DNA of 64,000 bases from Thermoplasmatota archaeon. Its GTDB lineage: Archaea > Thermoplasmatota > Penumbrarchaeia > Penumbrarchaeales > Penumbrarchaeaceae. Positions 21,592 through 64,000 of the stretch are shown one piece after another. The stretch spans positions 79,047 to 143,046 of the forward strand of contig CBDDUX010000003.1 of NCBI GenBank assembly GCA_965234725.1. The letters run 5' to 3'. Every line of letters begins with the position of its first letter. The stretch's first letter is position 1. The notes beneath the pieces are model-generated. The model was not told the DNA's origin. It saw only the letters and a program-made list of their open reading frames with translations, and made no database searches. A program made the translations under genes and the position numbers.

Positions 21592-22649
21592 CAATAGATG
21601 GGAGGAAGGACGATCATATACGTATATGTCTTGAAGAAGATGTACAGGCAACCAGGAATTACTGGGATGATATTATTATCCCACACAGGGCCATACCGTG
21701 CGATGATCTTCAAGAGATAGACCTTTCAACAGAACTATTGGGGCGAAAATTATCTGCTCCATTGGTAATCTCTGCAATGACTGGTGGGACAAAACAAGCA
21801 GAAAGATACAATGGCCTCCTTGCTAGGGTGGCATCAGAATTCGGTATAGGTTTAGGGGTGGGTTCACAACGTGCCGGGATAGAGAAAAAGGAACACAGAC
21901 CAAGTTACGAGATAGTTAGGGATTTCGATATCCCCCTTGTTCTTGGAAACCTCGGAGCGCCTCAGTTCTCCAGTTCCATCAGAGATGGAAGGTATGGTCA
22001 TAAGGATATTGTATCGGCTCTTGAAATGGTCGGAGCACATGGAATCTGCATACACCTGAATTATCTTCAGGAGGTCATCCAGCCTGAAGGAGATTGCTTT
22101 GTTAAGGGGATAAGAGACTCGATCAAAGAACTCTCAGTTGAATTTAAAATAATTGCTAAAGAGACTGGTGCGGGAATTTCTCGTGAGGATGCTCTCTTTT
22201 TAAAAAGATCCGGTATATCCGCAATCGATGTGGGTGGAATGTCAGGGACCACCTTTTCTGGAGTAGAGTCTTACAGGGAGGACCCTACCGGAAGAGCATC
22301 TCGAATGGGTAGGACCTTGTGGAACTGGGGTATTCCAACACCTGTTTCCCTCATAGAAGCCGATGTAGGCCTCCCATTGATAGGAACCGGTGGCCTGAGG
22401 AATGGACTAGATGTGGCAAGAGCTATTTCTTTGGGGGCAACGACAGGGGGAATGGCCTGGACGATCCTGAAAGCGGCTTCTAAGGGGTATGAAAGCTTGA
22501 AAGCTGAGATCTCTTCGATCATCGAGGAGATTAGGGCAGTGATGTTCCTATCGGGTGTATCGAATGTGAGTGAGCTGAAAAGAATAGAACCTTGGATCAT
22601 TGGACCAACCGGGCGTATATTGGATCAAATACGTGCAAATGGACGATAA
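21588..22649 (+). CDS. fni: Type 2 isopentenyl-diphosphate delta-isomerase
   Basis: RKDDHI, ISAMTGG, GVGSQR, NLGA.Q, HLN.LQE.IQPEGD, KETG.G, WGIPT. Confidence 0.96.
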   Translation: MTIDGRKDDHIRICLEEDVQATRNYWDDIIIPHRAIPCDDLQEIDLSTELLGRKLSAPLVISAMTGGTKQAERYNGLLARVASEFGIGLGVGSQRAGIEKKEHRPSYEIVRDFDIPLVLGNLGAPQFSSSIRDGRYGHKDIVSALEMVGAHGICIHLNYLQEVIQPEGDCFVKGIRDSIKELSVEFKIIAKETGAGISREDALFLKRSGISAIDVGGMSGTTFSGVESYREDPTGRASRMGRTLWNWGIPTPVSLIEADVGLPLIGTGGLRNGLDVARAISLGATTGGMAWTILKAASKGYESLKAEISSIIEEIRAVMFLSGVSNVSELKRIEPWIIGPTGRILDQIRANGR

Positions 22650-22679
22650 TATCACTTTATGATAACTTTGGATTATCAG

Positions 22680-22697
22680 CGAAATCTTTAATATAAA
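22680..22697 (+). promoter_or_regulatory. BRE-TATA promoter of the DnaA-like gene
   Basis: CGAAATCTTTAATATAAA; spacing favours ATG 22766 over 22706. Confidence 0.5.
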
Positions 22698-22765
22698 ACC
22701 AGGGAATGGTTCAATTCAGAGAAGCTATTGTTCCGAATACCGGACGGTCAGGCAAGGGATATATT

Positions 22766-24022
22766 ATGGGTATTATAGACTGGATCAGGGGAAGAAGGAA
22801 GAAACCTTCATCCGGATTACCCAGAGGTAAAGGTCCAGCTGTAGAAAGGAAACGGGGTAGAAAGGAGGAAATGGAACCCATTTTGGAAGAGCTGGAGATC
22901 GAAAGGATCCGCAACAGAGAACAGGAGAACAGGATACAAGAAATGGAACAGAGATTCAACTCTCTTCAATCAAGATGGGCCTCCATGTTGGAACATCAGC
23001 AGACCACTATGATCAAATTGATAGAAAAGGGAGATGAAGAGGCAGATCCTGAAGGTGTCGTTTCATCAGGAAAAAAGAGAAAAGGAAAGTCCTCCCAGAA
23101 AAAGGGAAGTTCTTCATCCATCTCCCGTTTTTCATCCCCTGTCCTTCCAGAAAAGAAGTTCGAGAATTTCGTGGTCGACGATTCAAACAGATTCCCCTAT
23201 CTTGCTTCGGAAGCTGTTGCTATTGGAAAAGGAAGAAAGTACAATCCTCTTTTCATTTTCGGACCGGTGGGAGTTGGAAAAACACATTTACTGCATTCTA
23301 TCGCCAACAGGATGCGTGAAAATAACGGCGACCTTAAGATACTCTATTCATCTACAGAAAGGTTCACTGATGAATTGATAAGGTACCTTGATTCCGATGA
23401 TATCAGGGGATTTAGGAATCTTTACCAGGAGGTCGATGTTCTCCTTGTCGATGATATTCAGATGTTATCAGGCAGAGAGGCGACCCAGAAGGAATTCTTT
23501 CACATGTTCAATTACCTATACAACTCCGGAAAACAGATCGTCCTTTGCTCTGACAGGCCTCCAAGCGATATCAAGGAGCTTGAAACCAGGCTCAGGTCAA
23601 GGTTCGAGGGAGGTCTGATAATCGACATCCAGGTTCCCACTTTCGAGGGAAGGAAGCAGATCCTCCTAAATCTATCTCAGATGGAAGGTTTCTCTATTTC
23701 ATCGGAGGTTCTGGATTATCTATCATTCTACCTTGATTCCTCAGTAAGGGAGCTGGAAGGTGGGTTCAACAGAGTGACAGCCTATGCTTCCCTAATGAAG
23801 GAACCAATTACGGTTAACCTGGTCAGGAAAGTATTGGAAGGGTCGCTACAGAGAAGGGAATCTGTTCGGAAGGAAGATGAAGCTCAAAAGGAAGACCACC
23901 GCAGGTATGCTGAAAGTGAAACACATCAGGAAGAAGGCCCATACGATGATCTAGACCTTGAGGAAGAGACCGATATGATCGAGGAGGAACTCCTTCAGGA
24001 ACTGAGGAAAAAACCCCAATGA
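22766..24022 (+). CDS. DnaA/Hda-family AAA+ ATPase (DnaA domain III) with N-terminal coiled coil, lacking domain IV
   Basis: FENFVV..SN, YNPLFIFGPVGVGKTHLL, DVLLVDDIQ, TQKEFFH.FN, SDRPP, RLRSRF.GGL, VRELEG; acidic tail in place of the DNA-binding domain. Confidence 0.9.
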   Translation: MGIIDWIRGRRKKPSSGLPRGKGPAVERKRGRKEEMEPILEELEIERIRNREQENRIQEMEQRFNSLQSRWASMLEHQQTTMIKLIEKGDEEADPEGVVSSGKKRKGKSSQKKGSSSSISRFSSPVLPEKKFENFVVDDSNRFPYLASEAVAIGKGRKYNPLFIFGPVGVGKTHLLHSIANRMRENNGDLKILYSSTERFTDELIRYLDSDDIRGFRNLYQEVDVLLVDDIQMLSGREATQKEFFHMFNYLYNSGKQIVLCSDRPPSDIKELETRLRSRFEGGLIIDIQVPTFEGRKQILLNLSQMEGFSISSEVLDYLSFYLDSSVRELEGGFNRVTAYASLMKEPITVNLVRKVLEGSLQRRESVRKEDEAQKEDHRRYAESETHQEEGPYDDLDLEEETDMIEEELLQELRKKPQ

Positions 24023-24094
24023 TGCATCAATAAAAGAATATCCAACAGATAAGTTATATATTATCAGATTTAGTTAAGGTTACAGGTGGGATAA

Positions 24095-24766
24095 ATGGAC
24101 CGAGTAGGGGAAATCGAAAGAAGTGGCTTTGATGAATACCCGAGGACCGAGATGTACTTGCCAAAAAGGATTGGTTCTTACCTTCTCGATCTGGCAGTAT
24201 CAAGCTTCATCGTGATAATGATTTTCTATTTTGCAGGTGGCGACCTGGAAGACCCATGGACCTGGTTGATCATAATTGGAATATCAGGAATAACTTCCAT
24301 ACTCCTCAAGGCCGTATTGGAGACAGCGACGAGTAGGTCCATAGGCAAGGCAGTATTTGGATTGAAGGTGATCTCCCTATATGGAGAGATCGGTTTCGGG
24401 CAGATCATTACAAGGAATATTTTCGCGGTCATTCCGATAATAGGGCCATTCGTTGACTTCATATTCGGAAAGGGATCAGCGGAAGATGACAGACAGAAGC
24501 TTATGGACATCCAGTCTGGAACACTTGTTGTGGAGGATCTGGCAATTCCTGTGGAAGAACCCAGAGTAAGGGTGTACAGGGAACCTGTCAAGATGGAACC
24601 CAAGGAGAAGATGAAGCTCGATTTTAGGTCAATCAGGGTAGGTCATTGCCCTAGATGCGGAGCTCCTTACAGGATCACACCTCCAAATGACACCTCATTT
24701 TCCGGTCTCTGGAATCACAGGTGCACATGGTGCAATCATCTTATTACCATGGATGATAATGAATAA
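24095..24766 (+). CDS. RDD-family membrane protein with C-terminal Zn ribbon
   Basis: KRIGSYLLD, SIGK.VFGLKV, TRN, Q.L.D...GT.VV; CPRC...CTWC. Confidence 0.85.
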   Translation: MDRVGEIERSGFDEYPRTEMYLPKRIGSYLLDLAVSSFIVIMIFYFAGGDLEDPWTWLIIIGISGITSILLKAVLETATSRSIGKAVFGLKVISLYGEIGFGQIITRNIFAVIPIIGPFVDFIFGKGSAEDDRQKLMDIQSGTLVVEDLAIPVEEPRVRVYREPVKMEPKEKMKLDFRSIRVGHCPRCGAPYRITPPNDTSFSGLWNHRCTWCNHLITMDDNE

Positions 24767-24805
24767 GGGGTATGATTATAACAAGATCAAGCATATGGTT
24801 GATCG

Positions 24806-25762
24806 ATGCCTATATCATGCGACAGGTGCAAGCTACCATCCATAATATTCATAAGGTATTCTGGCCAGCATCTTTGTTCCATCCATTTTCTTGATCTAAT
24901 AAGACGCAGGGTCAAAAAAGAGATGAGATCCCAGAAGGTCTTCAAAAAGGGAAGAAAGGTGGGAATTGCAGTTTCCGGTGGTAAGGATAGCCTACTTTTA
25001 TTGAAATTGGTCAATGAGGTCTCTTCAAAATTAAAAGCACCTCCCCCAGTGGCCATAACGATCGATGAAGGGATAGCCGGTTATAGGCCATCTTCTTTGG
25101 ATCTTGTAAGGAAAGTAGTGGAAGAATCTGAGGTCGAATTGAAGATCATTTCCTTCAAGGACCTCTACGGGAAGACCATGGACGAGCTGGTGATCTCCAG
25201 TGGAATGGGACCATGTTCCATATGTGGGATACTAAGAAGAAAGGCCCTCAACCAGGGTGCTGTAGAGACTGGAAGCGGTATTCTCCTTACAGGTCATAAT
25301 CTGGATGATACGGCACAGACAATTTTAATGAATGTACTGCAGGCTGATGTGAATCGTCTCGCCCGTCTTGGGCCCCACCTTGATCCAATAGATGGATTCA
25401 TTCCAAGAGCAATGCCTTTAAGGACCACACCGGAGACTGAGACATATCTTTCGGCTGTCCTTCTTGGTCTACCGATACATGGGCTGGAGTGCCCATACTC
25501 CGGATCAGCAAAAAGGGGCCATTACAGGGATATGATCCTTAAGTTGGAAGAGGAGACACCAGGGACCAGACATTCTCTACTTCGATTCTATGATCAAGTG
25601 GCACCCTTGATCCCCAGATCAAAACCCATTACGATCCCATGTATGGGATGCGGAGAACCCGTAATAGAAAATGAACGAAAAACATTATGCCGATCCTGTT
25701 CAATAATGAATGAAATTAGAAAGGACAATGACAGGAGAAGATCTAAGGGGGTAATAAAATGA
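24806..25762 (+). CDS. tRNA 2-thiolation PP-loop ATPase (TtuA/Ncs6 family)
   Basis: CDRC, SGGKDS, IDEGI.GYR, CSICGILRR, TGHNLDD, CPY, C-terminal CxxC pairs. Confidence 0.92.
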   Translation: MPISCDRCKLPSIIFIRYSGQHLCSIHFLDLIRRRVKKEMRSQKVFKKGRKVGIAVSGGKDSLLLLKLVNEVSSKLKAPPPVAITIDEGIAGYRPSSLDLVRKVVEESEVELKIISFKDLYGKTMDELVISSGMGPCSICGILRRKALNQGAVETGSGILLTGHNLDDTAQTILMNVLQADVNRLARLGPHLDPIDGFIPRAMPLRTTPETETYLSAVLLGLPIHGLECPYSGSAKRGHYRDMILKLEEETPGTRHSLLRFYDQVAPLIPRSKPITIPCMGCGEPVIENERKTLCRSCSIMNEIRKDNDRRRSKGVIK

Positions 25763-26388
25763 AAAGAAAGAGGTTGGAGATGATACTTTCCGATCTTCCC
25801 CATATGATGGAACCAAGACCAGACCTTGAACAATACAGGACCCCATCTCCCATGGTATGTGACATTCTCTATGAAGCGCTAGGACGTGGAGATATCGAGG
25901 ATAAAAAGGTTTGTGAGCTTGGCTGTGGGGGGGCTCCCTTCGCAATAGGTTCATGGATACTTGGTGCGAAGGAGGTTCTGGGCATTGATGTCGATGATAA
26001 AGCCCTTGGTCTTGCCAAAACGAACGTTGAAAAAGCCAGATCCAGTTTGAAGGATGTCCCACATGCACCTTTCGAGTTCATGCTCCATGATCTAAAGGAG
26101 AAGATACCTCTTTCACCCAGGTTCGATACTGTGATGATGAATCCACCTTTTGGAGCACAGAACAGACATGCTGATCGTCCATTTATTGAAAGAGCCCTGG
26201 AGATCTCACACGTTTGCTATTCCATCCATAACGGCAACTCCTATGTTTTCTTGAAAAGCATCTCAAAAGCATTAAAAGCCGATATGGAGGTCCTGTGGGA
26301 GGATTCTCTCGAGATACCGGCAATGTTCCACTTTCATACAAAAGAAAGAACATCTGTAGGTGTTGTGATTGTGAGGTTCTCAAAATGA
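25759..26388 (+). CDS. METTL5-like RNA methyltransferase
   Basis: LEQY.TP, ELGCG.G, MNPPFG.Q..HAD..F, YSIH, F.FH. Confidence 0.9.
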   Translation: MKRKRLEMILSDLPHMMEPRPDLEQYRTPSPMVCDILYEALGRGDIEDKKVCELGCGGAPFAIGSWILGAKEVLGIDVDDKALGLAKTNVEKARSSLKDVPHAPFEFMLHDLKEKIPLSPRFDTVMMNPPFGAQNRHADRPFIERALEISHVCYSIHNGNSYVFLKSISKALKADMEVLWEDSLEIPAMFHFHTKERTSVGVVIVRFSK

Positions 26389-41788: not shown

Positions 41789-42190
41789 TCATATTCTGTT
41801 CTTCTGGAGCCTCTTCATCTTCTTCTTGTCGATGGAATAACCTTTGGGTGCCACGATCAAGAGGTTCTGTGATATTCCAGCAATATCCCCCTGGATATCC
41901 TCAACGACTCTCTTGAGTTCCGTGATCGTCCTCTTGAGTTCAAGATCATCATTGGCTATCGGGGTGAAATCAAGTACCAGAATATTTCCCTCGTATACAA
42001 GGTTCGAAAGTTCCGGAATCTGTCGGTATCCATCTATATCAGCGAACTTGATGAAGGGACCTCCGGACTTCCTTGCCGTCTCCGTTGCACCGCCTTTGAG
42101 GAGTCCAAGATCGATATAACCTCTTCCCATTCTCATTTCATCAGCCGGGTATTCCTCCTCAGGTTCTGCTCTCTTTTTAAACCAACCCAT
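41789..42190 (-). CDS. sepF: Cell division protein SepF
   Basis: Amphipathic MGWFKK start, YIDL, VYEGNILVLD, GDIAG, ++V.P. Confidence 0.9.
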   Translation of the reverse strand: MGWFKKRAEPEEEYPADEMRMGRGYIDLGLLKGGATETARKSGGPFIKFADIDGYRQIPELSNLVYEGNILVLDFTPIANDDLELKRTITELKRVVEDIQGDIAGISQNLLIVAPKGYSIDKKKMKRLQKNRI

Positions 42191-55478: not shown

Positions 55479-56030
55479 ATGGACATTATACTGATGATCC
55501 TTATTGGGTTCGTACTGCTCGCTGCCGTGATTGCCATAATTTGGTTCATCTCGAGACAGCAAAGAAAGCAGGTGGAGGCGATTGAAGAGGAACCGAGGAG
55601 AAGGGGAAGAGAAGAGTTCATTCCCTTTGATGAAGAGGCTGCAGAGGTACTTCAGAGAAGGATCGTAAGGTGCTCAAAATGTGAGGAAGAGGTTAGTCCT
55701 TTCGATGAGGAGTGTCCCCATTGCGGAGCAAGATTATCAGTGGGCATCTATGAATGCTCCGCCTGTGGAAGGGAAGTGGATCCAAGAGATAAGGAATGCC
55801 CTCATTGTGGAGAGAATCTACTTCCAGAACCCTATGTGTGCCCGAATTGTAACAAACCTGTCGAAGCGGATGCCAACAAATGTGATAGTTGTGGTTCAAG
55901 ATTCTGGAGCCCTATATTGCTAGAAGAGGTGACCCAGAAGAAAAAGAAATGGAAAGAAGAACCGGAACAGATCCCCTCTGAAGATCAGGATGCCGATAGA
56001 CGACCTATCAGAAGAAGGTCTTTAAGGTAG
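55479..56030 (+). CDS. Membrane-anchored multi zinc-ribbon (DZR-type) protein
   Basis: N-terminal TM; six CxxC motifs forming three ribbons. Confidence 0.85.
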   Translation: MDIILMILIGFVLLAAVIAIIWFISRQQRKQVEAIEEEPRRRGREEFIPFDEEAAEVLQRRIVRCSKCEEEVSPFDEECPHCGARLSVGIYECSACGREVDPRDKECPHCGENLLPEPYVCPNCNKPVEADANKCDSCGSRFWSPILLEEVTQKKKKWKEEPEQIPSEDQDADRRPIRRRSLR

Positions 56031-56100
56031 ATTGAGATCTAAAATACCCATAATCATCATTCTTAACTATGCGAATAGGTCTTTCGCTAATGGGTCAGAA

Positions 56101-57135
56101 TTAAGATCTTATCTTTATATCAAATGCCATCATGGATTGGGATGGGGAATAATTATGCACTTCCCTTACCCCAGCTGTTTCAAGATCCTTACCTATGGAT
56201 CTACCGACATCCAAGATCGAATGTATGTGTTCCAATATCTTTCCTTCATCAACAATGGAATAAAGATGTATCATACCTTCTTCCATAAGATCAAGTGCAA
56301 CATCAAGATAATCCTTTGCACCATGTGGCAAGTTCATTATTATTCGATCGAATGGACCCATTCCCTGAGGAGCTTCTCTGGCATCTCCTAAGAAGACATC
56401 AACAGTATCCTCCAGGGAATTTAGTCTAATATTGTTCTTAAAAAAATCGACGCAGTCGGGATTAAGATCTATTCCGATCACCTCCTCAGGATCACCATGT
56501 CTTGCAATAGTAATTGAAAAAGGTCCTACACCTGCAAACATGTCCAATATCCTCCCATTTTCTGTTAGTTGGGCGATCCGCATTCTTTCTGATGCTAGTC
56601 TCGGGGAAAAATAGACCTTTCCTGGATCCAATCTGAATCTGAGGTTATTCTCAACATGGACCGTTTCAAGATCATCAGAACCGGAAATGACCTCGAGGTC
56701 CCTGATGCGAAATTCCCCCCTTACTCCCATATCAAGTGCCACGGTTCTTAAATTGCGTTTTGTCTCCATAAGGGCATTTCCTATACGATCCCTATATGGA
56801 AGTAAAGGGTCAGGAAGTTTTATGATGCAAATATCTCCGATGACATCAAAAGAAGATGGAAGCATTTCCTGAAGCTCCCTATCTAGGTCCAATAAGTCCT
56901 TGTAGGTCCTTGGAGGTCTTTCGACAAGTTCAAGATCATCAGTAATTATGACACCTACTTTCTCCAGACTGGTACGATCTCCTTCAATTTTTAGTGGTAA
57001 TAAGACTGATCCATCTATCGCTTTAACCTTCAATTCAAGATTTAGAAGTCCTCTCCTTAGAAGTTCCCGACGTACTTTTTCAGCTTCACTTCTTTTCACC
57101 TTTAAACAGTCCGATTCCATCAAAGGGTCTAACAA
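56101..57135 (-). CDS. Trm5/TYW2 (Met-10+-like) tRNA methyltransferase
   Basis: SFDVIGDI, T.H.EN, KVYFSPRL.SER, DMFAGVGPFSI, DLNP, RIIMNLP. Confidence 0.92.
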   Translation of the reverse strand: MLDPLMESDCLKVKRSEAEKVRRELLRRGLLNLELKVKAIDGSVLLPLKIEGDRTSLEKVGVIITDDLELVERPPRTYKDLLDLDRELQEMLPSSFDVIGDICIIKLPDPLLPYRDRIGNALMETKRNLRTVALDMGVRGEFRIRDLEVISGSDDLETVHVENNLRFRLDPGKVYFSPRLASERMRIAQLTENGRILDMFAGVGPFSITIARHGDPEEVIGIDLNPDCVDFFKNNIRLNSLEDTVDVFLGDAREAPQGMGPFDRIIMNLPHGAKDYLDVALDLMEEGMIHLYSIVDEGKILEHIHSILDVGRSIGKDLETAGVREVHNYSPSQSMMAFDIKIRS

Positions 57136-57177
57136 TTATCAATATTTAATCTGATAGGATATTTTTCATTCCAATTG

Positions 57178-57579
57178 TTACAGATCGCCTTTTGTAATGA
57201 GGCCATCTTCTGGAAGGGGCTCATCATCCAATTCTTCATCATATGTCCAATTCGGATCTTCTACCCATTCGACCTTTTTTATCATGAATTTCCTAAATAG
57301 AATTACTGATATCACAGTCACAAGAGCCATGAAAAGGAGTATAAAAATGACAAGAAACAGATTGAAAATATCGAAAACCCCTTTATCTGAAGTAGGATCC
57401 GTATCAATGCCAGGTTCTGTCAATGGGCCTTCATCTGTGGTGGAATTTTCAATCACCTCAACTTTTGTTGATCCAACTGAAATATATCCATGAATTGTTG
57501 ATACCTCAGAAAGTACAGGGGTCGAATAAGAAAATAATGCGATCAAAGAGACCATAATGACACTTTTTATTAAAGACAA
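57178..57579 (-). CDS. Small single-pass membrane protein
   Basis: Signal-like N-terminus, one TM, acidic tail; TTG start. Confidence 0.55.
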   Translation of the reverse strand: MSLIKSVIMVSLIALFSYSTPVLSEVSTIHGYISVGSTKVEVIENSTTDEGPLTEPGIDTDPTSDKGVFDIFNLFLVIFILLFMALVTVISVILFRKFMIKKVEWVEDPNWTYDEELDDEPLPEDGLITKGDL

Positions 57580-58013
57580 TCCAATACCTCTGGGTTGATA
57601 TAATAAAATATCTTGATAACTATTATATCTTTTTCTATTTTGATATTTATCTAAAAGATAAGAACGACTATTTTAAAAAATTTTCTTGAGGATAATATGA
57701 TACCTGTTAAGGTCTTATTCCTATTCCCCGACTTCATATATGTATTATAATGCCAATGTATTAAGAACAATAAAATTTCATAAATATATGTAAAAATCCG
57801 AATATTAGGCATAATATTTTAGAAAAACTTAACAAATATATTCATATTATCATATTTCCTAAAGAATATTATGATTAATGTTACATCTTAACATAATGTA
57901 CATATTATACACTTCATGACGAATATGAAATGGATAATATATAGCAATGATTATGAGGAATATTAGATTGCAAATAGTGACATTTTATATAGCTATATGA
58001 TTATAACTATGCT

Positions 58014-59186
58014 ATGGAAAAAAATAAAAAAAATAGAAAAGAATCAGAAATGATAAAAAACTTCACGAATACGTGTAGAACAATGTCTACCAAAAGAATG
58101 TATAGAAGATCTGTTGAGATCTTCCTATATCATATCTATGATCATGATCAAGATAAAGATCCTGAATTCCTGGTAAAAAAATATTTGAAGGCAAAAAGAA
58201 ATCATAGGAATGATTTGATCTCATTTATCAATTATTTAGAAGAACAGAATTATTCTCCAAAGACAGTGAATTTATATTTAGTTGGAGTAAAAGAATTTCT
58301 TTTCTATTATAATATTGAATTCACTCAATCTGATTTGAAGGTCATTAAACGGAGAAAACCAAAGTCTGTCAATATCAATAGGGATTTGCCAGTCACACCA
58401 GAAATTTTACACACAATTATTGATCATTTCAATGGTATCCAAGGAAAGGCCCTAACACTGTTCCTGGCTTCTTCAGGTTGCAGGATTAATGAAGCCCTAT
58501 CTATTACCATAAAAGATATAGATCTCTCTCAGAATCCACCTAGAATCTATCTACGTGGATTAATCACAAAGAATCAATGTAATAGAACCACTTTCATTAG
58601 TAATGAAGCAAAAGAAGCCCTTGGAAAATGGTTAGATCTAAGAGAATCTTATATTGAGAAGAAAGTGAAGAATTACAAACATTTAAAAATTAATCCGGTT
58701 AATGATCATGTATTTCCTTATAATGAGAGAACTGCCCATTCTCTATGGAATACTGCCCTCAAAAGATCTGGTTTAGATAAAGAGAAGGATCATGGAACAG
58801 GCAGATTTCTTTATACCTTTCATGGTCTGAGAAGATTCTTCAAATCACAACTTACAGGTCACCTGGAATCTGAAATTGTTGAAAGATTACTTGGCCATGA
58901 GGGATATCTAAATGGATCATATTTTAGGATCTCTGAAAATGAAATGGCAGAAAAATATCTTGAAGTAGAGAATAGATTGGAAACCAAATCACTCTTGAAA
59001 AATGCCTCAAGAGTCAAAGAATTAGAAACAAGAGTGGATATTCTCCAATCAAGAAATGACGGATTAGAAAATATTGTGAATTCACTGAAAAATCAAAATA
59101 ATGATCTAATGAAAATGTTCATTGAATTCAAAGAATTCCATGGTATTCCAGATAATCCTATTATCATAGGTAAAAAATCAGATTAA
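58014..59186 (+). CDS. Tyrosine recombinase/integrase with C-terminal coiled coil
   Basis: SPKT..., SGCRINEAL (R), TKN (K), HGLRRFF (HxxR), LLGH, GSY (Y). Confidence 0.95.
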   Translation: MEKNKKNRKESEMIKNFTNTCRTMSTKRMYRRSVEIFLYHIYDHDQDKDPEFLVKKYLKAKRNHRNDLISFINYLEEQNYSPKTVNLYLVGVKEFLFYYNIEFTQSDLKVIKRRKPKSVNINRDLPVTPEILHTIIDHFNGIQGKALTLFLASSGCRINEALSITIKDIDLSQNPPRIYLRGLITKNQCNRTTFISNEAKEALGKWLDLRESYIEKKVKNYKHLKINPVNDHVFPYNERTAHSLWNTALKRSGLDKEKDHGTGRFLYTFHGLRRFFKSQLTGHLESEIVERLLGHEGYLNGSYFRISENEMAEKYLEVENRLETKSLLKNASRVKELETRVDILQSRNDGLENIVNSLKNQNNDLMKMFIEFKEFHGIPDNPIIIGKKSD

Positions 59187-59503
59187 TATTTTGGTGAGAT
59201 CCTAACATTCAATCTGCCATATCCACTCATTAATCTACCATATATCTGGTTGACTTGTACTCCACCAATTGTCTTTTCCTCTCCAATATCCAATGGAAAA
59301 ATCTTTGGTTCATTTCCACTTGAAATTATTTTTATAGAAATTTGGTGTTTTTTGGATCTGTTTGTGATTGAGACACCATGGCATTTTATGAGATTATCTT
59401 CCAATATATACCAATCTTTTTTCCCTTTTATACCTGGTACTGAATGGTAGTGATTCTTATCAATGATTTTCATTGTCATTTTAATCCTTTTTCCTGACTT
59501 CAA
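59183..59503 (-). CDS. Hypothetical small beta-rich protein
   Basis: 106-aa ORF overlapping neighbours in an operon-like run; start uncertain. Confidence 0.6.
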   Translation of the reverse strand: MKSGKRIKMTMKIIDKNHYHSVPGIKGKKDWYILEDNLIKCHGVSITNRSKKHQISIKIISSGNEPKIFPLDIGEEKTIGGVQVNQIYGRLMSGYGRLNVRISPKY

Positions 59504-59669
59504 TTGTGCCTAATGTTAATTCTTTAAAAATAGGTAACAAGTGCAATAACATTTCTGATTCCTTTGATCCTTTTTTTGATTCTTTTTCAAGAATTGGTGT
59601 GGCCAGATCAAATGCAATAATTCTGATTTTCCTAAATTTTTCGGCCATTTTTTGTCTTCTTTCAAACAT
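59481..59669 (-). CDS. Hypothetical small protein
   Basis: 62-aa ORF, GAGGAGG SD-like sequence upstream. Confidence 0.5.
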   Translation of the reverse strand: MFERRQKMAEKFRKIRIIAFDLATPILEKESKKGSKESEMLLHLLPIFKELTLGTIEVRKKD

Positions 59670-59683
59670 TCATGAAACCCTCC

Positions 59684-59959
59684 TCAACTATAAATTTCAA
59701 TCAATAATTCAGTTTCGTTTCCTATAGTTTCAAGCAAATAATTTAGTTGAAGAAAAAATTCTGAATTTTCAAAAATGTGTGTTTCGTGAGGCCTTAACAG
59801 ATAATGAAAAATAGGCCAATGTGACCTATATGGATATATCCATACAGAGTTCTGACCCTCATTCTGGACCATGACACTACAATCTCTTTTTCCTTTGTTA
59901 TTGAAAATCCTGGAATCCAATGCTGTTGCAGTATCAATGGTATAAGATTCTTTAACCAT
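59684..59959 (-). CDS. Hypothetical small beta-rich protein
   Basis: GAGGGTG SD upstream; VQNEGQNSVWI motif. Confidence 0.65.
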   Translation of the reverse strand: MVKESYTIDTATALDSRIFNNKGKRDCSVMVQNEGQNSVWIYPYRSHWPIFHYLLRPHETHIFENSEFFLQLNYLLETIGNETELLIEIYS

Positions 59960-59972
59960 TTGAGATTCACCC

Positions 59973-60356
59973 TCACTTTACAACTTTTCTAGGTCTTGAT
60001 TTGCTCAAATTCTGTATTTTCTTATCAATATCTTCATTAATGGCAATTGTAGTTCTTTCGACTGCTTTATTTAAAGGCTTATTCCTTTCGTAATATTCCT
60101 CACTCATACTGACACCTGGTATGCGTGTATTCCTGAGTTCTCTGTTGATTTTTTCTTCTCTTAATTTTTCATTTTGTAATTTTCTTGCCTTTATCCTTGA
60201 CCATGCCAGACGCCTAGGACCAAAAATAGAATCTTGATCACTCAACAAAAATGGAACCAATGGATCCTGCAATCTAAAAGCAGAGAAAATTGTATTTTCT
60301 GCCTGATTAAGAATGGATTCTGCCTTTCTGTTGAATCTCTCTCTATCTGAGACCAT
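59973..60356 (-). CDS. Hypothetical basic helical protein
   Basis: GGAGTGAG SD upstream, tight packing. Confidence 0.65.
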   Translation of the reverse strand: MVSDRERFNRKAESILNQAENTIFSAFRLQDPLVPFLLSDQDSIFGPRRLAWSRIKARKLQNEKLREEKINRELRNTRIPGVSMSEEYYERNKPLNKAVERTTIAINEDIDKKIQNLSKSRPRKVVK

Positions 60357-60361
60357 TTATC

Positions 60362-60607
60362 TCACTCCTGGTCACTTTCTCTCTTGAGCTCATTAATAAT
60401 GTCCTGACTGGTGTAATTGCTGGTTGGCCAATGGATTTCTTTGTCTATGCCACTCTCCATTTGTCTGTATATCCCTCTCTGAGAATTGAGAAGATCTCTT
60501 ACACCTACTCCTCTTGACATAACTCTCCTCATTCTTACCCTAGCATTACCAAGATTTTCCAACATTGTATCACTCTCCGTCATTGGTGAGATCATTCTCA
60601 CCTTCAC
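60362..60607 (-). CDS. Hypothetical protein
   Basis: ORF in the same operon-like run; start may be 60583. Confidence 0.55.
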   Translation of the reverse strand: MKVRMISPMTESDTMLENLGNARVRMRRVMSRGVGVRDLLNSQRGIYRQMESGIDKEIHWPTSNYTSQDIINELKRESDQE

Positions 60608-61052
60608 CTCTCATGAATTGACCTCTCATATTGGATCTTGCAACATTGAATCTTTCGGCCAATTTATCAAATAGTGGTTTTTCCTGCTCCAGATCTTCTT
60701 TGGATTTTGGAAATTTTCTTTTGATTTTTTGTCTTGATCCTGGCCCTATACCACTAGAATATCCTGTCATGATTTCCTCCTCCTCCTCCTCCAGATTTTC
60801 TTCCAGATCTTCAAGATTTGGATTATCATTTGGCAATGCCATTCCAAATTTTTCTGCCATTGATTTGAATTTTTGCATTTCTAATTTGGTTTCTTCTTTT
60901 TTGTTGACCTTGTCAACTCGTGTCCGTTCATTATTTAGAAGACCCTGGACCTCATTAATCCTATCTCTGGATTTTGATCTCACCCTGGAAAATATTGTAT
61001 TTCTTTTTTCTTCCTCTGTGATTGGTGCTGTGAGCAGATCATAGATTGTCAT
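60570..61052 (-). CDS. Hypothetical charged helical protein
   Basis: 160-aa ORF with GGAG SD, first gene after an AT-rich promoter-like gap. Confidence 0.7.
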   Translation of the reverse strand: MTIYDLLTAPITEEEKRNTIFSRVRSKSRDRINEVQGLLNNERTRVDKVNKKEETKLEMQKFKSMAEKFGMALPNDNPNLEDLEENLEEEEEEIMTGYSSGIGPGSRQKIKRKFPKSKEDLEQEKPLFDKLAERFNVARSNMRGQFMRGEGENDLTNDGE

Positions 61053-61215
61053 TTTACAACAACTCCATTTTTTTATTTTTTTATATAAATATAAATTGGT
61101 GTTTTTACTATATAAAATGACTTAATTATATAAATATAGCATAATGTAGAGACTATACATTACCCTATACCTTCATATATAATTTTCACAAAATAAAGAA
61201 TAATTCTTATTTTTC

Positions 61216-61413
61216 TTAAATCAAATCTACCTTAACATGTCTGAAATTCCAAACTGCACAACCTACTGGACAATTCCAAGATCCTCTTTTTAATTTTCTA
61301 TTCGGTAATCTTTTCGGAAACCATATCTCTCCACAATGTTTACACCTGAATTTTAGATTCTTATCGTTAAGAATTTCAACATTTTTTGGATTTTGATTTC
61401 TCATTTTTATCAC
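61216..61413 (-). CDS. Small Zn-finger-like protein
   Basis: CKHC...W...CPVGC. Confidence 0.6.
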   Translation of the reverse strand: MIKMRNQNPKNVEILNDKNLKFRCKHCGEIWFPKRLPNRKLKRGSWNCPVGCAVWNFRHVKVDLI

Positions 61414-61499
61414 TATGCATTAATAACAATCACTTCAATATAATATTTTCTTTTTATTTATATACTTCTAACCTGAAAAAATAAATTTTTTTTTTGACC

Positions 61500-62468
61500 A
61501 CTTCTCATTTGTTGGTGTGGTGGTGATTGGATCTATATATCTAACATAACCTCGAGACCTTGAGACCCTGAGATTATCCACACCTTGAGATTTTATCTAA
61601 CAATCTGGCAATGCTTGTATCTGTTGTTGTTTGTATCAATATTTGTACTGTACTACTAGATCTGTTGTTATTTTTTTTTTGTGTTCCCTCCTTAATCCTC
61701 ATTTGTTGGTGTGTGAACACAATTCATGGTGTATGACCAATTCAAATCATGGTAAATGCAATTCCATTCATGGACAATGTATCAATGTATGGATAACCAC
61801 AATGTGTGGATAACCTCAATGTAAAGATAACCACAATTTCTCAATGTCTCAACGTCATGACTTCACAATGTCACAATGTCATAATATCTCAATGTCAAAT
61901 AACATTTTAACATATTTACTATATCATATTCTTCCGTCCACTTTTCTGTCCACAAAAACATAAACCCTAACGTACTCTCTACTATGTACCACTTTATACA
62001 AATCATTTATATACTATAAAAATCACACTGCAAACGTGAGGCTACGTTGGTACTAGGTGGACGGTGGACAGAAGAAAATTTTACCTACTCTGGCTAGTGG
62101 TGTTTTACTGTCCACTGCTGTCCCTGTGTGTACTGGACAATCATGGTGAATCTATTATTACATATCAATCTATATCACTGATTGGCTGGACAATGGTGGA
62201 CGGCAAATGGACAGATAAAATACATGATTTCATGATTATACTGGTGATTTGGTAAAATATATCCTAATAAAGACACTTTTTCTGTTATTACTATCTTTCT
62301 TATTTTTATATTTTCCAATTGTCCACAATTGTCCACCTCATGCTGGACGGCTACTGGACAGATAAAATCACATGATTTCTTGATTATACTGGTGATTTGG
62401 CAAAATATATTCCAATAAATACATGTTCTCTATTATCACTATCTTCTTTATTTTTTCCTTTTCCAATT
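61500..62468. repeat. Repeat-rich origin-like region: 17-bp tandem units, CAATGT repeats, inverted GTCCA/TGGAC iterons, ~125-bp diverged direct repeat
   Basis: Visible directly in the sequence; lies just 3' of the helicase gene. Confidence 0.8.
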
Positions 62469-63967
62469 CTTGATCTTTTGGAATAATTTTTTAAATTTTC
62501 TTTTCCAACATGATCTACCAGATATCTATCAATTCTCTTTTTGAATCCTTCATATTCCAACATGTTTTCTTTTATTAATTTCTCATTAATACACCAATTT
62601 ATATACATGTTGTATAAATCCAATTTTCTAATCTTTTCTTTACTTTCCGAATCAAAATCAAGATACTGATAAATGAAGATAGAAGTAGGATCTGATAATT
62701 TATTCCACAATTCTTTTTTATCAATATTTGTTAATTCTTCCGGATACTTGAAATCATTCTCTAGTAATTTAAGAAATCCTTCTATCATAATATTATTTAA
62801 TGCAGACATTTTTTTCTTATCATTTATAAAATCATTACAAAATGATTTTTTAATGTTCTTGATTCTACCAATCCACCTTATGATAATAATCCTTCTCCAA
62901 GCAGCATTATCATTGTAATCTGTTAACATTGGTAATCTATTAACTGTATGTATAAATCTGGTCTTAAATGAAAAATTAACATATCCTCCATATTTCAAAT
63001 GACCACTATAATCATCCATTACATTGTTTCTATTCTTTAATAATTCTGTATCTAATTTGGACCATGTGTTTTCTTTTTCATTTAGAACAACAAAATGTTT
63101 TCCATTCAATGTGGCTTTCATGAAATTATCTTTTTCAAGTTGTGATAAATTTATATTGTTGGCCTTACTTCTGCCAATTATGGATTTCACAAATTCAAAA
63201 ATAGTTGTTTTTCCTGTATCAGTAGAACCTACATTGAAAATTTCGTTATCATTTGGTATGTCATAGAATAGGCAAGAACCTAGAACCATGTGAAATGTCT
63301 CTCTGTCTTGAATATAAACATGTTCTAATGGATTATAATTATCAACTGCACCTGGATCATAGTCATATTCTAATTGGTTCAGGCTCAGATAATAATCAGG
63401 ATCATGTTCCTCATGAGGAACAAATTTAATATCATTTGCATTTTTAATATGTAAAAATCCATTGTTATAATTTATGGTCCAACCAATGTTTTTATCAAAT
63501 TTATCAAACTGATTATATCTAATTGTTGAATAATCTTTTATTGCAGAAATAATTTCATTTACATATATATTTTTAGAAATTATATTAGCAGATTTAAGCA
63601 GTGATCTAACTATAAAACATATATGACTTTCTGAGTATTGATTATTGTAATTATCTATGTATCCTCCCTTATTATAAATCAATATCTCTTTATCATTATT
63701 TTCTTTTTCTATTGTTTTTATATTAAATGTTAAAATAATGTCTATTGCTAATTTATCATATTTTATTATCAGTCTACCATTTTTTGAATAATTGGAATAT
63801 TGACTCTTTAACATGTTGGATTTTAGAATCTCTAATTTTTCTTCTGTTGAAGCCTTATTTTCTCTCATAATTTTGATCCAATGAAATCTTTCATTTGTAG
63901 ATAAATCATATTTCTTCTGAATCTGACCTTCAGTTTCTATATCATTATCTGGAAAGGTCCAACACAT
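62384..63967 (-). CDS. SF3 replicative helicase of the phage/plasmid P4-primase C-terminal / poxvirus D5 type
   Basis: D5_N-like NYNNG.L, Walker A GSTDTGKTT, Walker B FVVLNE, motif C TVNRLP, A.WRR, C-terminal wHTH-like LY..Y..WC; no primase domain recognised. Confidence 0.88.
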   Translation of the reverse strand: MCWTFPDNDIETEGQIQKKYDLSTNERFHWIKIMRENKASTEEKLEILKSNMLKSQYSNYSKNGRLIIKYDKLAIDIILTFNIKTIEKENNDKEILIYNKGGYIDNYNNQYSESHICFIVRSLLKSANIISKNIYVNEIISAIKDYSTIRYNQFDKFDKNIGWTINYNNGFLHIKNANDIKFVPHEEHDPDYYLSLNQLEYDYDPGAVDNYNPLEHVYIQDRETFHMVLGSCLFYDIPNDNEIFNVGSTDTGKTTIFEFVKSIIGRSKANNINLSQLEKDNFMKATLNGKHFVVLNEKENTWSKLDTELLKNRNNVMDDYSGHLKYGGYVNFSFKTRFIHTVNRLPMLTDYNDNAAWRRIIIIRWIGRIKNIKKSFCNDFINDKKKMSALNNIMIEGFLKLLENDFKYPEELTNIDKKELWNKLSDPTSIFIYQYLDFDSESKEKIRKLDLYNMYINWCINEKLIKENMLEYEGFKKRIDRYLVDHVGKENLKNYSKRSRIGKGKNKEDSDNREHVFIGIYFAKSPV

Positions 63968-64000
63968 CGTTTACCCTAAAAGGCTCAACACATCGTTACC

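Follow-up and report, generated by a model that had tools for sequence, protein, structure and literature searches.

In the textbook view, DnaA belongs to bacteria and Orc1/Cdc6 to archaea. A gene labelled in databases as "chromosomal replication initiator protein DnaA" in the chromosome of a Thermoplasmatota archaeon raises the question of what it actually encodes and of what its product could be doing there. The gene lies in a window of 64,000 nucleotides, i.e. the whole stretch of DNA under analysis, for which an initial annotation made from the sequence alone had claimed a well-conserved DnaA domain III with a non-initiator role, preceded by a possible membrane-targeting amphipathic helix and a coiled coil, and followed by an acidic tail without domain IV. 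The core of this claim is upheld here and the description of both ends is amended. A whole marine-sediment Thermoplasmatota lineage has kept the ATPase engine of DnaA while lacking the parts that read DNA, and has multiplied it into several new architectures.

Gene, start codon and genomic setting

The open reading frame extends from position 22706 to 24022 on the forward strand and corresponds to 438 aa, or to 418 aa from an in-frame ATG at 22766 (Table 1). The latter is the likely translation start, because the MG/VG motif forms the first residues in 27 of the 29 rows of the ortholog alignment (the other two rows having called N-terminal extensions with L-G at the motif position) and because the TATA-like element, which would serve as the promoter, lies only 8 nt upstream of the ATG at 22706, against about 70 nt upstream of the ATG at 22766. 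The sequencing runs matching window positions 21600-25800 are DNA from marine-sediment and salt-marsh metagenomes, mostly with small shares, and none of those listed is RNA.

Table 1. Features of the DnaA-core locus, with positions counted from the first nucleotide of the window
Feature	Position	Strand	Evidence
TATA-like AT-rich element TTTAATATAAAA, possible archaeal promoter	22687..22698	+	Read from sequence; putative role
Stand-alone DnaA domain III protein, 418 aa	22766..24022 (stop codon included)	+	ORF, PF00308, ortholog alignment
N-terminal peptide MGIIDWIRGRRKK, hydrophobic/Trp patch then polybasic run	22766..22804	+	Ortholog conservation
Probable coiled coil formed by a long helix (residues 30-91)	22853..23038	+	AF2, heptad periodicity
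Variable Lys/Ser-rich linker, residues 92-125	23039..23140	+	Gappy and unconserved in ortholog alignment
DnaA domain III, AAA+ base with initiator-specific motif and lid, residues 126-360	23141..23845	+	PF00308, PDB/Foldseek matches, hhalign
Variable charged stretch, residues 361-394, in place of hinge and domain IV	23846..23947	+	Unconserved; no domain IV alignment
Acidic C-terminal helix motif DLDLEEETDxIExELLxELKK, residues 395-416	23948..24013	+	Conserved in orthologs
RDD-family membrane protein with C-terminal zinc ribbon, downstream neighbour	24095..24766	+	Pfam RDD, E 9.8e-11

The closest characterised relatives of the protein are all bacterial, which speaks for an artefact, be it a mis-binned or mis-joined bacterial contig, a chimera of the kind that the initial annotation had itself envisaged, or a decaying pseudogene. 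Against this stand the same 9-gene archaeal block around the gene in 12/12 family loci, from 7 genera and independent assemblies, the archaeal nature of the flanking genes (Pus10 with an archaeal THUMP domain, UbiA prenyltransferase and others), an even GC content (0.42-0.47 across window positions 1-56000), an intact frame with invariant catalytic residues, and a dN/dS of 0.059 relative to a 93%-identical ortholog (0.013 for domain III, 0.155 for the N-terminal part and 0.056 for the tail). Synteny, neighbours, base composition, frame and selection together refute the artefact, which is left with next to no probability. The gene is a single-copy chromosomal one, vertically inherited in a Thermoplasmatota lineage under strong purifying selection; it is present in 22 of 23 family genomes, and 271 of the 301 Thermoplasmatota genomes searched have no match to it.

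Judged by eye, the downstream RDD protein would have three membrane spans and a zinc ribbon lying outside the cell. Its gene follows the DnaA-core gene in 12/12 family loci, as does the entire gene block; in the 4 genomes from outside the family where both genes occur, it does not lie close to a DnaA-core gene. It was rejected as a functional partner, since the adjacency holds only within a wholly conserved block and is absent in those 4 genomes.

A complete DnaA domain III

Regarding the central part of the protein, the Pfam family Bac_DnaA (PF00308) matches residues 130-287 with 195.4 bits for a cut-off of 23 (E 9.7e-58), covering positions 5-162 of the 162 of the profile. Upon hhalign comparison with 20 canonical DnaAs, domain III is complete, about residues 117-367 of the archaeal protein being aligned to DnaA positions 100-350. 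The closest solved relative is DnaA of B. subtilis (PDB 8btg_A, E 8.8e-68), and Foldseek retrieves 8bv3_A from the same protein (E 1.2e-20, TM 0.82 on target, 48% identity). The base, the initiator-specific motif and the lid are shared with bacterial domain III as solved in B. subtilis (8BV3/8BTG), Thermotoga (2Z4R) and Aquifex (2HCB/3R8F), and so are the Walker A and B motifs, sensors I and II, box VII, the arginine finger and most ssDNA-contact residues. The Walker A K172, the Walker B D229/D230 and the sensor I D263, as well as the box VII R275, the arginine finger R279 and the sensor II R328, are invariant in 29/29 orthologs. The AF2 model, with an overall pTM of 0.49, has low confidence over part of the lid (residues 327-362). 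The gene encodes a DnaA-type AAA+ module whose catalytic set is intact and in which domain III comes with its initiator-specific motif and lid, and the domain III of the initial annotation is as well conserved as had been stated.

According to a study on B. subtilis DnaA (PMC10721633), the residues contacting ssDNA include E183, I190, I193, R202, K222, E223 and E228. Once these contacts were transferred to the archaeal protein via the structural-relative alignment, 7 of 9 positions proved to be kept in the archaeal orthologs, as E198, I/L/V205, L/I208, R217, R/K237, E238 and E243. The two remaining positions differ. At the equivalent of Asn187, an essential residue of B. subtilis DnaA that contacts a base, all 28 orthologs have an acidic residue (Asp in 26, Glu in 2), against Asn in 60 of 62 canonical DnaAs, and the equivalent of Asn196 is mostly Asp.

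Absence of the DNA-reading parts

Unlike bacterial DnaA, the archaeal protein has neither domain I/II nor the DnaA-box-binding domain IV at a detectable level; its N-terminal peptide, probable coiled coil and acidic C-terminal helix are new. The full-length NCBIfam model of DnaA (TIGR00362) reaches 307.7 bits, below its cut-off of 343.9, and is matched only at positions 47-345 of 437. With the 20 canonical DnaAs, nothing aligns ahead of DnaA position 100, where domain I would be expected, and the alignment ends at position 350 of 446, leaving domain IV without a counterpart. In six frames of the whole genome, which is 97.65% complete, neither domain IV (PF08299) nor domain I (PF11638) gave a match at E<=0.01, the control search with PF08299 being positive in 10/10 bacterial genomes; a DnaB N-terminal domain was not found in the genome either. 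The expectation in the initial annotation that Bac_DnaA would be present and domain IV absent is thus borne out, even genome-wide.

The host has Orc1/Cdc6 instead. The corresponding NCBIfam model (TIGR02928) returned 5 matches genome-wide, two of them over the cut-off, on contigs C62 and C66, and the DnaA-core gene is absent from the five. Since two Orc1/Cdc6 genes are located elsewhere in the genome, the DnaA-core protein is, on the evidence of gene content, not the replication initiator, and labelling such genes as DnaA initiators misleads the prediction of origins or replication modes in archaeal genomes. Besides, as only the ATPase core is kept and new conserved ends replace the DNA-reading parts, the protein probably has a job differing from that of the bacterial replication starter.

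Other members of the clade likewise do without the DNA-reading domain. Like the archaeal protein, Hda/HdaA, which are related to DnaA and inactivate it as regulators, are DnaA-clade AAA+ proteins lacking domain IV and bearing a short peptide at the N-terminus, which is functional in Hda; the similarity is nonetheless weak (PDB 5x06_E, E 3.5e-10; TIGR03420, 101.9 bits for a cut-off of 194.8), the archaeal domain III is far closer to DnaA, and the archaeal protein exceeds Hda by about 170 residues and includes a probable coiled coil. DnaC, DnaI and IstB also exemplify the reuse of an initiator-clade AAA+ module without a sequence-specific DNA-binding domain, but they are only distant matches, all under the family cut-offs (48.9 vs. 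200 for the NCBIfam IS21 helper and 36.4 vs. 228 for DnaI), and the host genome is without the DnaB-type N-terminal domain. The Pfam match to IstB_IS21 (31.2 bits) covers only the P-loop core, which is covered by PF00308 as well.

New conserved ends

At the N-terminus, the motif MGxLDWFKG followed by a polybasic run is conserved across the 29 orthologs, G2 being invariant and D5 and W6 at least 90% conserved, as the reading in the initial annotation required. Over the first 20 residues, the net charge averages +4. In its strict form, the pattern fits no other ORF start in the genome; related N-termini are found in other DnaA-core paralogues, in which the variable motif keeps an alternation of hydrophobic residues rather than an aromatic pair. 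One unrelated protein of 285 aa, encoded on contig C40, has such a start too. For residues 1-125, the ESM Atlas gave no usable match, and stand-alone versions of this region were not found among shorter proteins.

A parallel with archaeal SepF had been drawn from the start MGWFKK of a SepF in the window, which is indeed encoded at 41789-42190 on the minus strand and begins MGWFKKR. According to PMC8178401, the membrane peptide of the M. smithii SepF, MGFTDALKRSLGF, binds vesicles, lipid binding being assayed by liposome co-sedimentation or tryptophan fluorescence. This peptide (residues 1-12) and the one at hand are both at the extreme N-terminus, both read MG-hydrophobic-x-Asp-x-hydrophobic-Lys/Arg, and both are followed by a flexible linker and then by a functional domain. 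The likeness to archaeal SepF is a resemblance only. The host's own SepF has a different start, and the DnaA-core peptide shows no significant hydrophobic moment relative to shuffled sequences: the Eisenberg moment is 0.40 in an 11-residue window, which is reached by 55% of shuffles, and 0.64 in an 8-residue window, which is reached by 18% of shuffles for the protein of the window and by 10-15% in most orthologs. Its hydrophobic part spans no more than about six residues. Of the membrane-targeting amphipathic helix initially suggested, the conservation, the terminal position and the SepF-like appearance hold, but the amphipathic character is not distinguishable from chance.

The coiled coil proposed to follow is confirmed as a predicted helix (block pLDDT 84-91 over residues 41-80), with a heptad periodicity reached by at most 5% of shuffles in 21/29 orthologs and by 11.6% for the protein of the window. 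The pLDDT falls below 50 at residues 91-116, within and next to the linker. At the other end, the tail does lack domain IV and is acidic, as had been noted, but it also ends in a conserved helix motif that had been overlooked, in which L398, E401, E406, L409, L410 and E412 are invariant and for which AF2 predicts a helix over residues 398-415 (block pLDDT 83 at residues 401-410). Related tails are found in order-level relatives (L027, L028, P0134, P0158 and P0182). The motif was also compared with the FtsZ tails, which proved to be different, so that it is not a copy of them.

Paralogues and distant relatives

Within this archaeal class, the gene is one of a larger set of DnaA-core paralogues, whose cores are joined to DUF835, zinc ribbons, HEAT repeats or coiled-coil repeats. 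This set is apparently undescribed: no paper describing archaeal DnaA-core proteins was found in a literature search of openly accessible main texts, and "DnaA" is not mentioned in the MBG-D/Thermoprofundales papers that this search found. DUF835 is presented in PMC5847659 as an inactivated-KaiC output domain of archaeal signalling. The DUF835 and HEAT-repeat fusions suggest that the module may simply switch by oligomerising, without any part played by DNA.

After the archaeal family, the next-best matches are tandem DnaA-core proteins of Gemmatimonadota (35-45% identity), which have about 560-700 aa, two domain IIIs and no domain IV. Their architecture is that of a non-initiator, as here, but they are bacterial, carry two cores per chain and are without the N-terminal peptide or the C-terminal motif. 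The literature searches found no paper on them, and to our knowledge they have no described function. Neither of the two trees built places them as sister to the archaeal family. These trees are a FastTree phylogeny of 185 domain-III segments, in which 77 of 181 inner branches are unresolved, and a quick IQ-TREE phylogeny of 52 segments, from which one paralogue of this genome (1251 aa, on a long branch) was omitted and in which 22 of 49 inner branches are unresolved; neither resolves a bacterial sister group of the archaeal family. Grouping all 21 Thermoplasmatota rows together is not rejected by the AU test (p 0.266), a result that does not show one origin.

Possible functions

The best explanation, advanced tentatively, is a membrane-proximal, ATP-dependent DnaA-type oligomer. 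ATP binding would drive head-to-tail assembly via the conserved arginine finger, giving a DnaA-like oligomer whose subunits would be paired or bundled by the N-terminal helix, and the MG-hydrophobic-Asp-Trp-hydrophobic peptide together with the polybasic run would keep this oligomer on the inner side of the membrane, as the N-terminal peptide does in archaeal SepF. Through the retained ssDNA-contact residues, the oligomer would hold single-stranded nucleic acid, with a base preference that may have changed because the base-contacting Asn has become Asp, and the acidic C-terminal helix, at the former site of domain IV, might act as a handle for a partner or fold back onto the basic N-terminus. 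Filament formation and ssDNA binding are deduced here from conserved residues, and as regards the nucleic-acid step, the negative charge added by the Asn-to-Asp change could weaken binding instead of retuning it. If the core still forms ATP-dependent ssDNA filaments at the membrane, archaea would possess a nucleoid or division factor of a novel type, which would also be a natural experiment on DnaA domain III acting alone.

That same substitution, falling as it does on a base-contacting position, also agrees with an ATP-driven oligomerisation switch or scaffold making no nucleic-acid contact, the N-terminal peptide of which would dock on a protein, e.g. the FtsZ-binding groove of SepF, rather than on lipid. 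This account is on the unlikely side, though several observations favour it: class paralogues fuse the DnaA core to DUF835, HEAT repeats and long coiled-coil repeats, and the peptide IIDWIR resembles both the tails of the two FtsZs of the genome (GIDFIR and GVQFIR) and LDDFI in the M. smithii FtsZ peptide lodged in the SepF groove (PMC8178401). The conservation of 7/9 ssDNA-contact positions and of the whole initiator-specific motif, at the very low dN/dS of domain III (0.013), would however be hard to explain if DNA were irrelevant, and the polybasic run fits lipid or nucleic acid better than an acid-rich FtsZ peptide, whose Asp residues form salt bridges to SepF in M. smithii (same source). 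The kept ssDNA-contact residues would be equally at home in a replication factor acting via protein contacts, either an Hda-like regulator binding PCNA by a PIP-like N-terminal peptide (hydrophobic-x-x-aromatic-hydrophobic) and modulating Orc1/Cdc6, or a DnaC-like helper of origin melting or MCM loading. Hda and DnaC/DnaI, which are both among the distant matches, provide precedents without a DNA-reading domain, and a short N-terminal hydrophobic/aromatic motif followed by basic residues may be likened to clamp-binding peptides. Such a factor is nevertheless improbable, given that the Hda, DnaI and IstB scores are far under the cut-offs, that the gene is not beside Orc1/Cdc6, the genes of which sit on other contigs, and that the paralogues have no aromatic pair; besides, absence from most Thermoplasmatota implies that the gene is not part of the core archaeal replisome.

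Beyond the membrane-proximal oligomer, a bolder and highly doubtful extension can be put forward, in which an ATP switch derived from DnaA would be stationed at the membrane or the divisome. Its N-terminal peptide would insert in the membrane or mimic an FtsZ tail in the SepF groove, its core would assemble on ssDNA, and the division machinery would thereby be informed of the chromosome's condition, such as the presence of unreplicated, damaged or trapped DNA. If true, a bacterial initiator would have given rise to an archaeal device coupling the chromosome to the septum, and the paralogues would make up a family of ATP-gated scaffolds. Small and soluble-looking, the protein lends itself readily to biochemical assays.

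A DnaA ATPase core without domains I and IV

With DnaA of B. subtilis, the DnaA-core protein shares domain III, i.e. the AAA+ ATPase core, at 48% identity, while nothing in it aligns to the canonical N-terminal domain I or DNA-binding domain IV. Pfam Bac_DnaA (PF00308) matches residues 130-287 (E 9.7e-58), and the NCBIfam DnaA model is matched over profile positions 47-345 of 437 with 307.7 bits, below its cut-off of 343.9. By sequence, the nearest solved structure is 8btg_A, of B. subtilis DnaA, whose positions 95-344 align with query 111-359 (E 8.8e-68), and the nearest by fold is 8bv3_A (E 1.2e-20, TM 0.82 normalised on target, 48% identity), as retrieved by Foldseek with an AlphaFold2 model of mean pLDDT 70.2 and pTM 0.49. 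When profiles of 29 orthologs and 20 canonical DnaAs were compared, only residues 117-367 aligned, on DnaA 100-350 of 446, and neither domain I nor domain IV was covered.

In the whole genome harbouring the gene (3.54 Mb, 97.65% complete), a six-frame search found no match at E<=0.01 to Bac_DnaA_C, DnaA_N or the DnaB N-terminal domain, bacterial controls being positive, and two Orc1/Cdc6 genes score above the NCBIfam cut-off (contigs C62 and C66). Since domains I and IV were not found genome-wide and two Orc1/Cdc6 genes are present, the protein is neither a split DnaA nor the initiator. The DnaA ATPase without domain IV recognised in the initial annotation is confirmed, and the repurposed, non-initiator role proposed there is supported.

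The Walker A, Walker B, sensor I, box VII, arginine finger and sensor II motifs are invariant in all 29 orthologs. Contacts of B. subtilis DnaA with the DnaA-trio strand, as given in the accessible text of PMC10721633, were mapped via the 8btg_A sequence alignment (offset +15); those kept in the family are Glu183, Ile190, Ile193, Arg202, Lys222, Glu223 and Glu228 (B. subtilis numbering). Asn187, described in the same text as essential and hydrogen-bonding the captured adenine, is Asn in 60/62 canonical DnaAs of the sample but Asp (26/28) or Glu (2/28) in the archaeal family, and the Asn196 position is mostly Asp. With seven contacts kept and these two changed, the alignment suggests a single-stranded DNA groove preserved yet re-charged at two base-facing positions.

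Start codon and protein anatomy

The open frame spans 22706..24022 (+) for 438 aa, and the ATG at 22766, the start assumed initially, would give a protein of 418 aa. In the alignment of 29 orthologs, 27 start at the MG (or VG, with a GTG start) of the N-terminal motif, and the two others, called with extensions, have Leu-Gly at that position. A TATA-like element, TTTAATATAAAA, lies at 22687-22698, just 8 nt ahead of the upstream ATG (22706), so that transcription from it probably begins downstream of this codon. Because ortholog starts align at the motif and the element is too close to the upstream ATG, 22766 is taken as the true start.

The first 20 residues carry a mean net charge of +4. Heptad periodicity of the long helix reaches the 5% level in 21/29 orthologs, and for the protein itself the value is 11.6% with a period of 3.5 and 4.4% with one of 3.6. 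The C-terminus, initially described as an acidic tail, turned out to hold a motif conserved among orthologs and is consequently a conserved element rather than filler.

Features of the DnaA-core protein, and bacterial proteins with tandem DnaA cores
Feature	Location	Description
N-terminal peptide	residues 1-13	MGxLDWFKG then basic run; G2 invariant, D5 and W6 at least 90% conserved (29 orthologs)
Long helix	residues 30-91	AlphaFold2; block pLDDT 84-91 over 41-80
Linker	residues 92-125	Lys/Ser-rich, variable across orthologs
Domain III	residues 126-360	nearly invariant across orthologs
Charged stretch	residues 361-394	variable across orthologs
C-terminal motif	residues 395-416	DLDLEEETDxIExELLxELKK; conserved, predicted helical
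Tandem-core bacterial proteins	P0048, P0055, P0058, P0111, P0124-P0142	about 560-700 aa; several labelled Gemmatimonadota

Genomic setting and distribution

The gene belongs to an archaeal chromosome. Its neighbours encode Pus10 carrying the archaeal form of THUMP domain, a UbiA prenyltransferase and two small methyltransferases. Other genes nearby code for a protein of the amino-acid-kinase fold and an FMN-dependent one (putatively isopentenyl phosphate kinase and type 2 IDI, respectively), for a membrane protein of the RDD family and for a PP-loop protein similar to TtuA. The GC content is even across window 1-56000 (0.42-0.47). The same FMN-dependent and RDD genes flank the gene in 12/12 loci from other genomes of the family (7 genera), and wherever the contig extends far enough, the entire block, with Pus10 at one end and the second methyltransferase at the other, is conserved; named records of family relatives are metagenome-assembled genomes of "Thermoplasmatales / Thermoplasmatota archaeon". 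In a single pairwise comparison with a 93%-identical ortholog (in-house Nei-Gojobori script), dN/dS was 0.059 overall, 0.013 for domain III, 0.155 for residues 1-125 and 0.056 for the tail. Towards the end of the window (56000-64000), GC drops from about 0.43 to 0.28-0.36, with ORFs including 58014..59186 (+) and 62384..63967 (-); this end may be a foreign island.

The RDD/zinc-ribbon gene lies directly 3' of the DnaA-core gene in all 12 family loci, which says little because the whole block is syntenic. Outside the family, four of five genomes have an RDD/zinc-ribbon homologue, and in these four it sits on a different contig or over 1 Mb away from any DnaA-core gene; a functional pair is not claimed.

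The gene is present in 22/23 other family genomes, the single miss being 62% complete. In a sample of 301 Thermoplasmatota genomes with a completeness of 80% or more, matches at E<=1e-30 occur in 30: the genome under study, 14/14 from its family, 2/2 from the order's sister family, 6/10 from the class's other families and 7 elsewhere, with none in large families of 37, 23, 39 and 47 genomes. A collection of 5.8 billion proteins yielded 45 family members (P0003-P0047; 333-461 aa, 50-77% identical), none carrying Bac_DnaA_C; 50% clustering reduces the family to two representatives among 1.84 billion. Where given, source names are "chromosomal replication initiator protein DnaA" or "DnaA/Hda family protein"; databases name such archaeal proteins DnaA, and literature searches found no publication on them.

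The N-terminal peptide and a possible mode of action

Of 64,676 candidate starts in the genome, a single one fits the strict N-terminal pattern, and a looser one retrieves a further plausible start, that of a 285-aa protein on contig C40 (L093:5520-6377, +) beginning MGFLDRILGRRKK, for which no Pfam family was found; as this protein begins with almost the same peptide, the latter is a portable module. The C40 gene directly follows a TBP gene. Short DnaA-core paralogues of other families begin alike (MGLIDRLLG.., MGFIDKLVEIFSKKK, MGLFDRLFKKKK, MGFIDKLKALFGG), with hydrophobic pairs around Asp and then lysines being kept rather than the sequence itself.

As regards the membrane-targeting helix suggested initially, the N-terminal motif is conserved and closely resembles, in position and pattern, the M. 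smithii SepF peptide MGFTDALKRSLGF, which binds vesicles according to the accessible text of PMC8178401; its Eisenberg moment, on the other hand, is not clearly set apart from that of shuffles, and the suggestion is partly supported. Alternatively, the peptide could be a mimic occupying the SepF groove, as IDWIR (residues 4-8) resembles both FtsZ tails of the genome, GIDFIR and GVQFIR (contigs C32 and C26; loci L090 and L091), as well as LDDFI, part of the FtsZ peptide that occupies that groove according to the same text. Given the SepF likeness, the moment not set apart from shuffles and the FtsZ-tail likeness, a membrane peptide is the leading reading, plausible but unproven, and the groove mimic its rival.

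In the preferred scheme, which is possible rather than probable, the core would form an ATP-dependent oligomer of the DnaA type, whose subunits would be bundled by the coiled coil close to the membrane and which would retain a grip on single-stranded nucleic acid, the conserved C-terminal helix serving as a handle for a partner or for auto-regulation.

DnaA-core paralogues and origin

Outside the window, the genome encodes a second DnaA-core protein of 1251 aa (contig C21, L030:7194-10949, +), in which an N-terminal domain is followed by some eight coiled-coil repeats with the signature W-x3-G-[YF], then by a diverged DnaA core and two zinc ribbons as a double unit. Pfam gave no match for its N-terminal domain, whose pattern G-G-x-D...F-[ST]-G-Y-L is reminiscent of PATAN/DUF4388. 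Several family genomes encode orthologs about 1190-1270 aa long, whereas the near-complete genomes G008 and G009 gave none. Elsewhere in the class, up to 10 DnaA-core matches per genome were counted (G026), and cores at loci L078-L089 are joined to zinc ribbons and poly-Lys tails, HEAT/Armadillo repeats, long coiled-coil repeats or DUF835, an inactivated-KaiC output domain according to the accessible text of PMC5847659. The DnaA core thus seems to have expanded in Thermoplasmatota as a module of general use, in a way apparently not described before.

In trees, the window's family is a single clade (support 99) whose sister group consists of order-level relatives (91-93). The backbone is star-like and singles out no bacterial donor; the AU test does not reject a single origin for the 21 Thermoplasmatota rows (p-AU 0.266), but this is no proof of one. 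Gemmatimonadota-labelled bacterial proteins lack domain IV and contain a tandem pair of DnaA cores. Their linker bears the motif W-x2-x-G-Y-R, similar to the repeat seen in the long paralogues of archaea, and two giants, P0122 and P0123 (1876 and 1990 aa), also have two cores. Further proteins of 400-850 aa (P0155, P0167, P0172, P0193, P0196, P0230, P0244) have a DnaA core but lack domain IV; they carry a conserved D-x2-R-[YH]-K motif at the N-terminus and Y-K-Y-L-N-L-x-L-D-I at the C-terminus, and the tree places them next to canonical DnaAs. In another Thermoplasmatota genome, the DnaA-core match at G054:C1:320699-321673 lies inside a frame of 864 aa that is interrupted by two in-frame TGA codons, so that the gene may be broken or the stop recoded.
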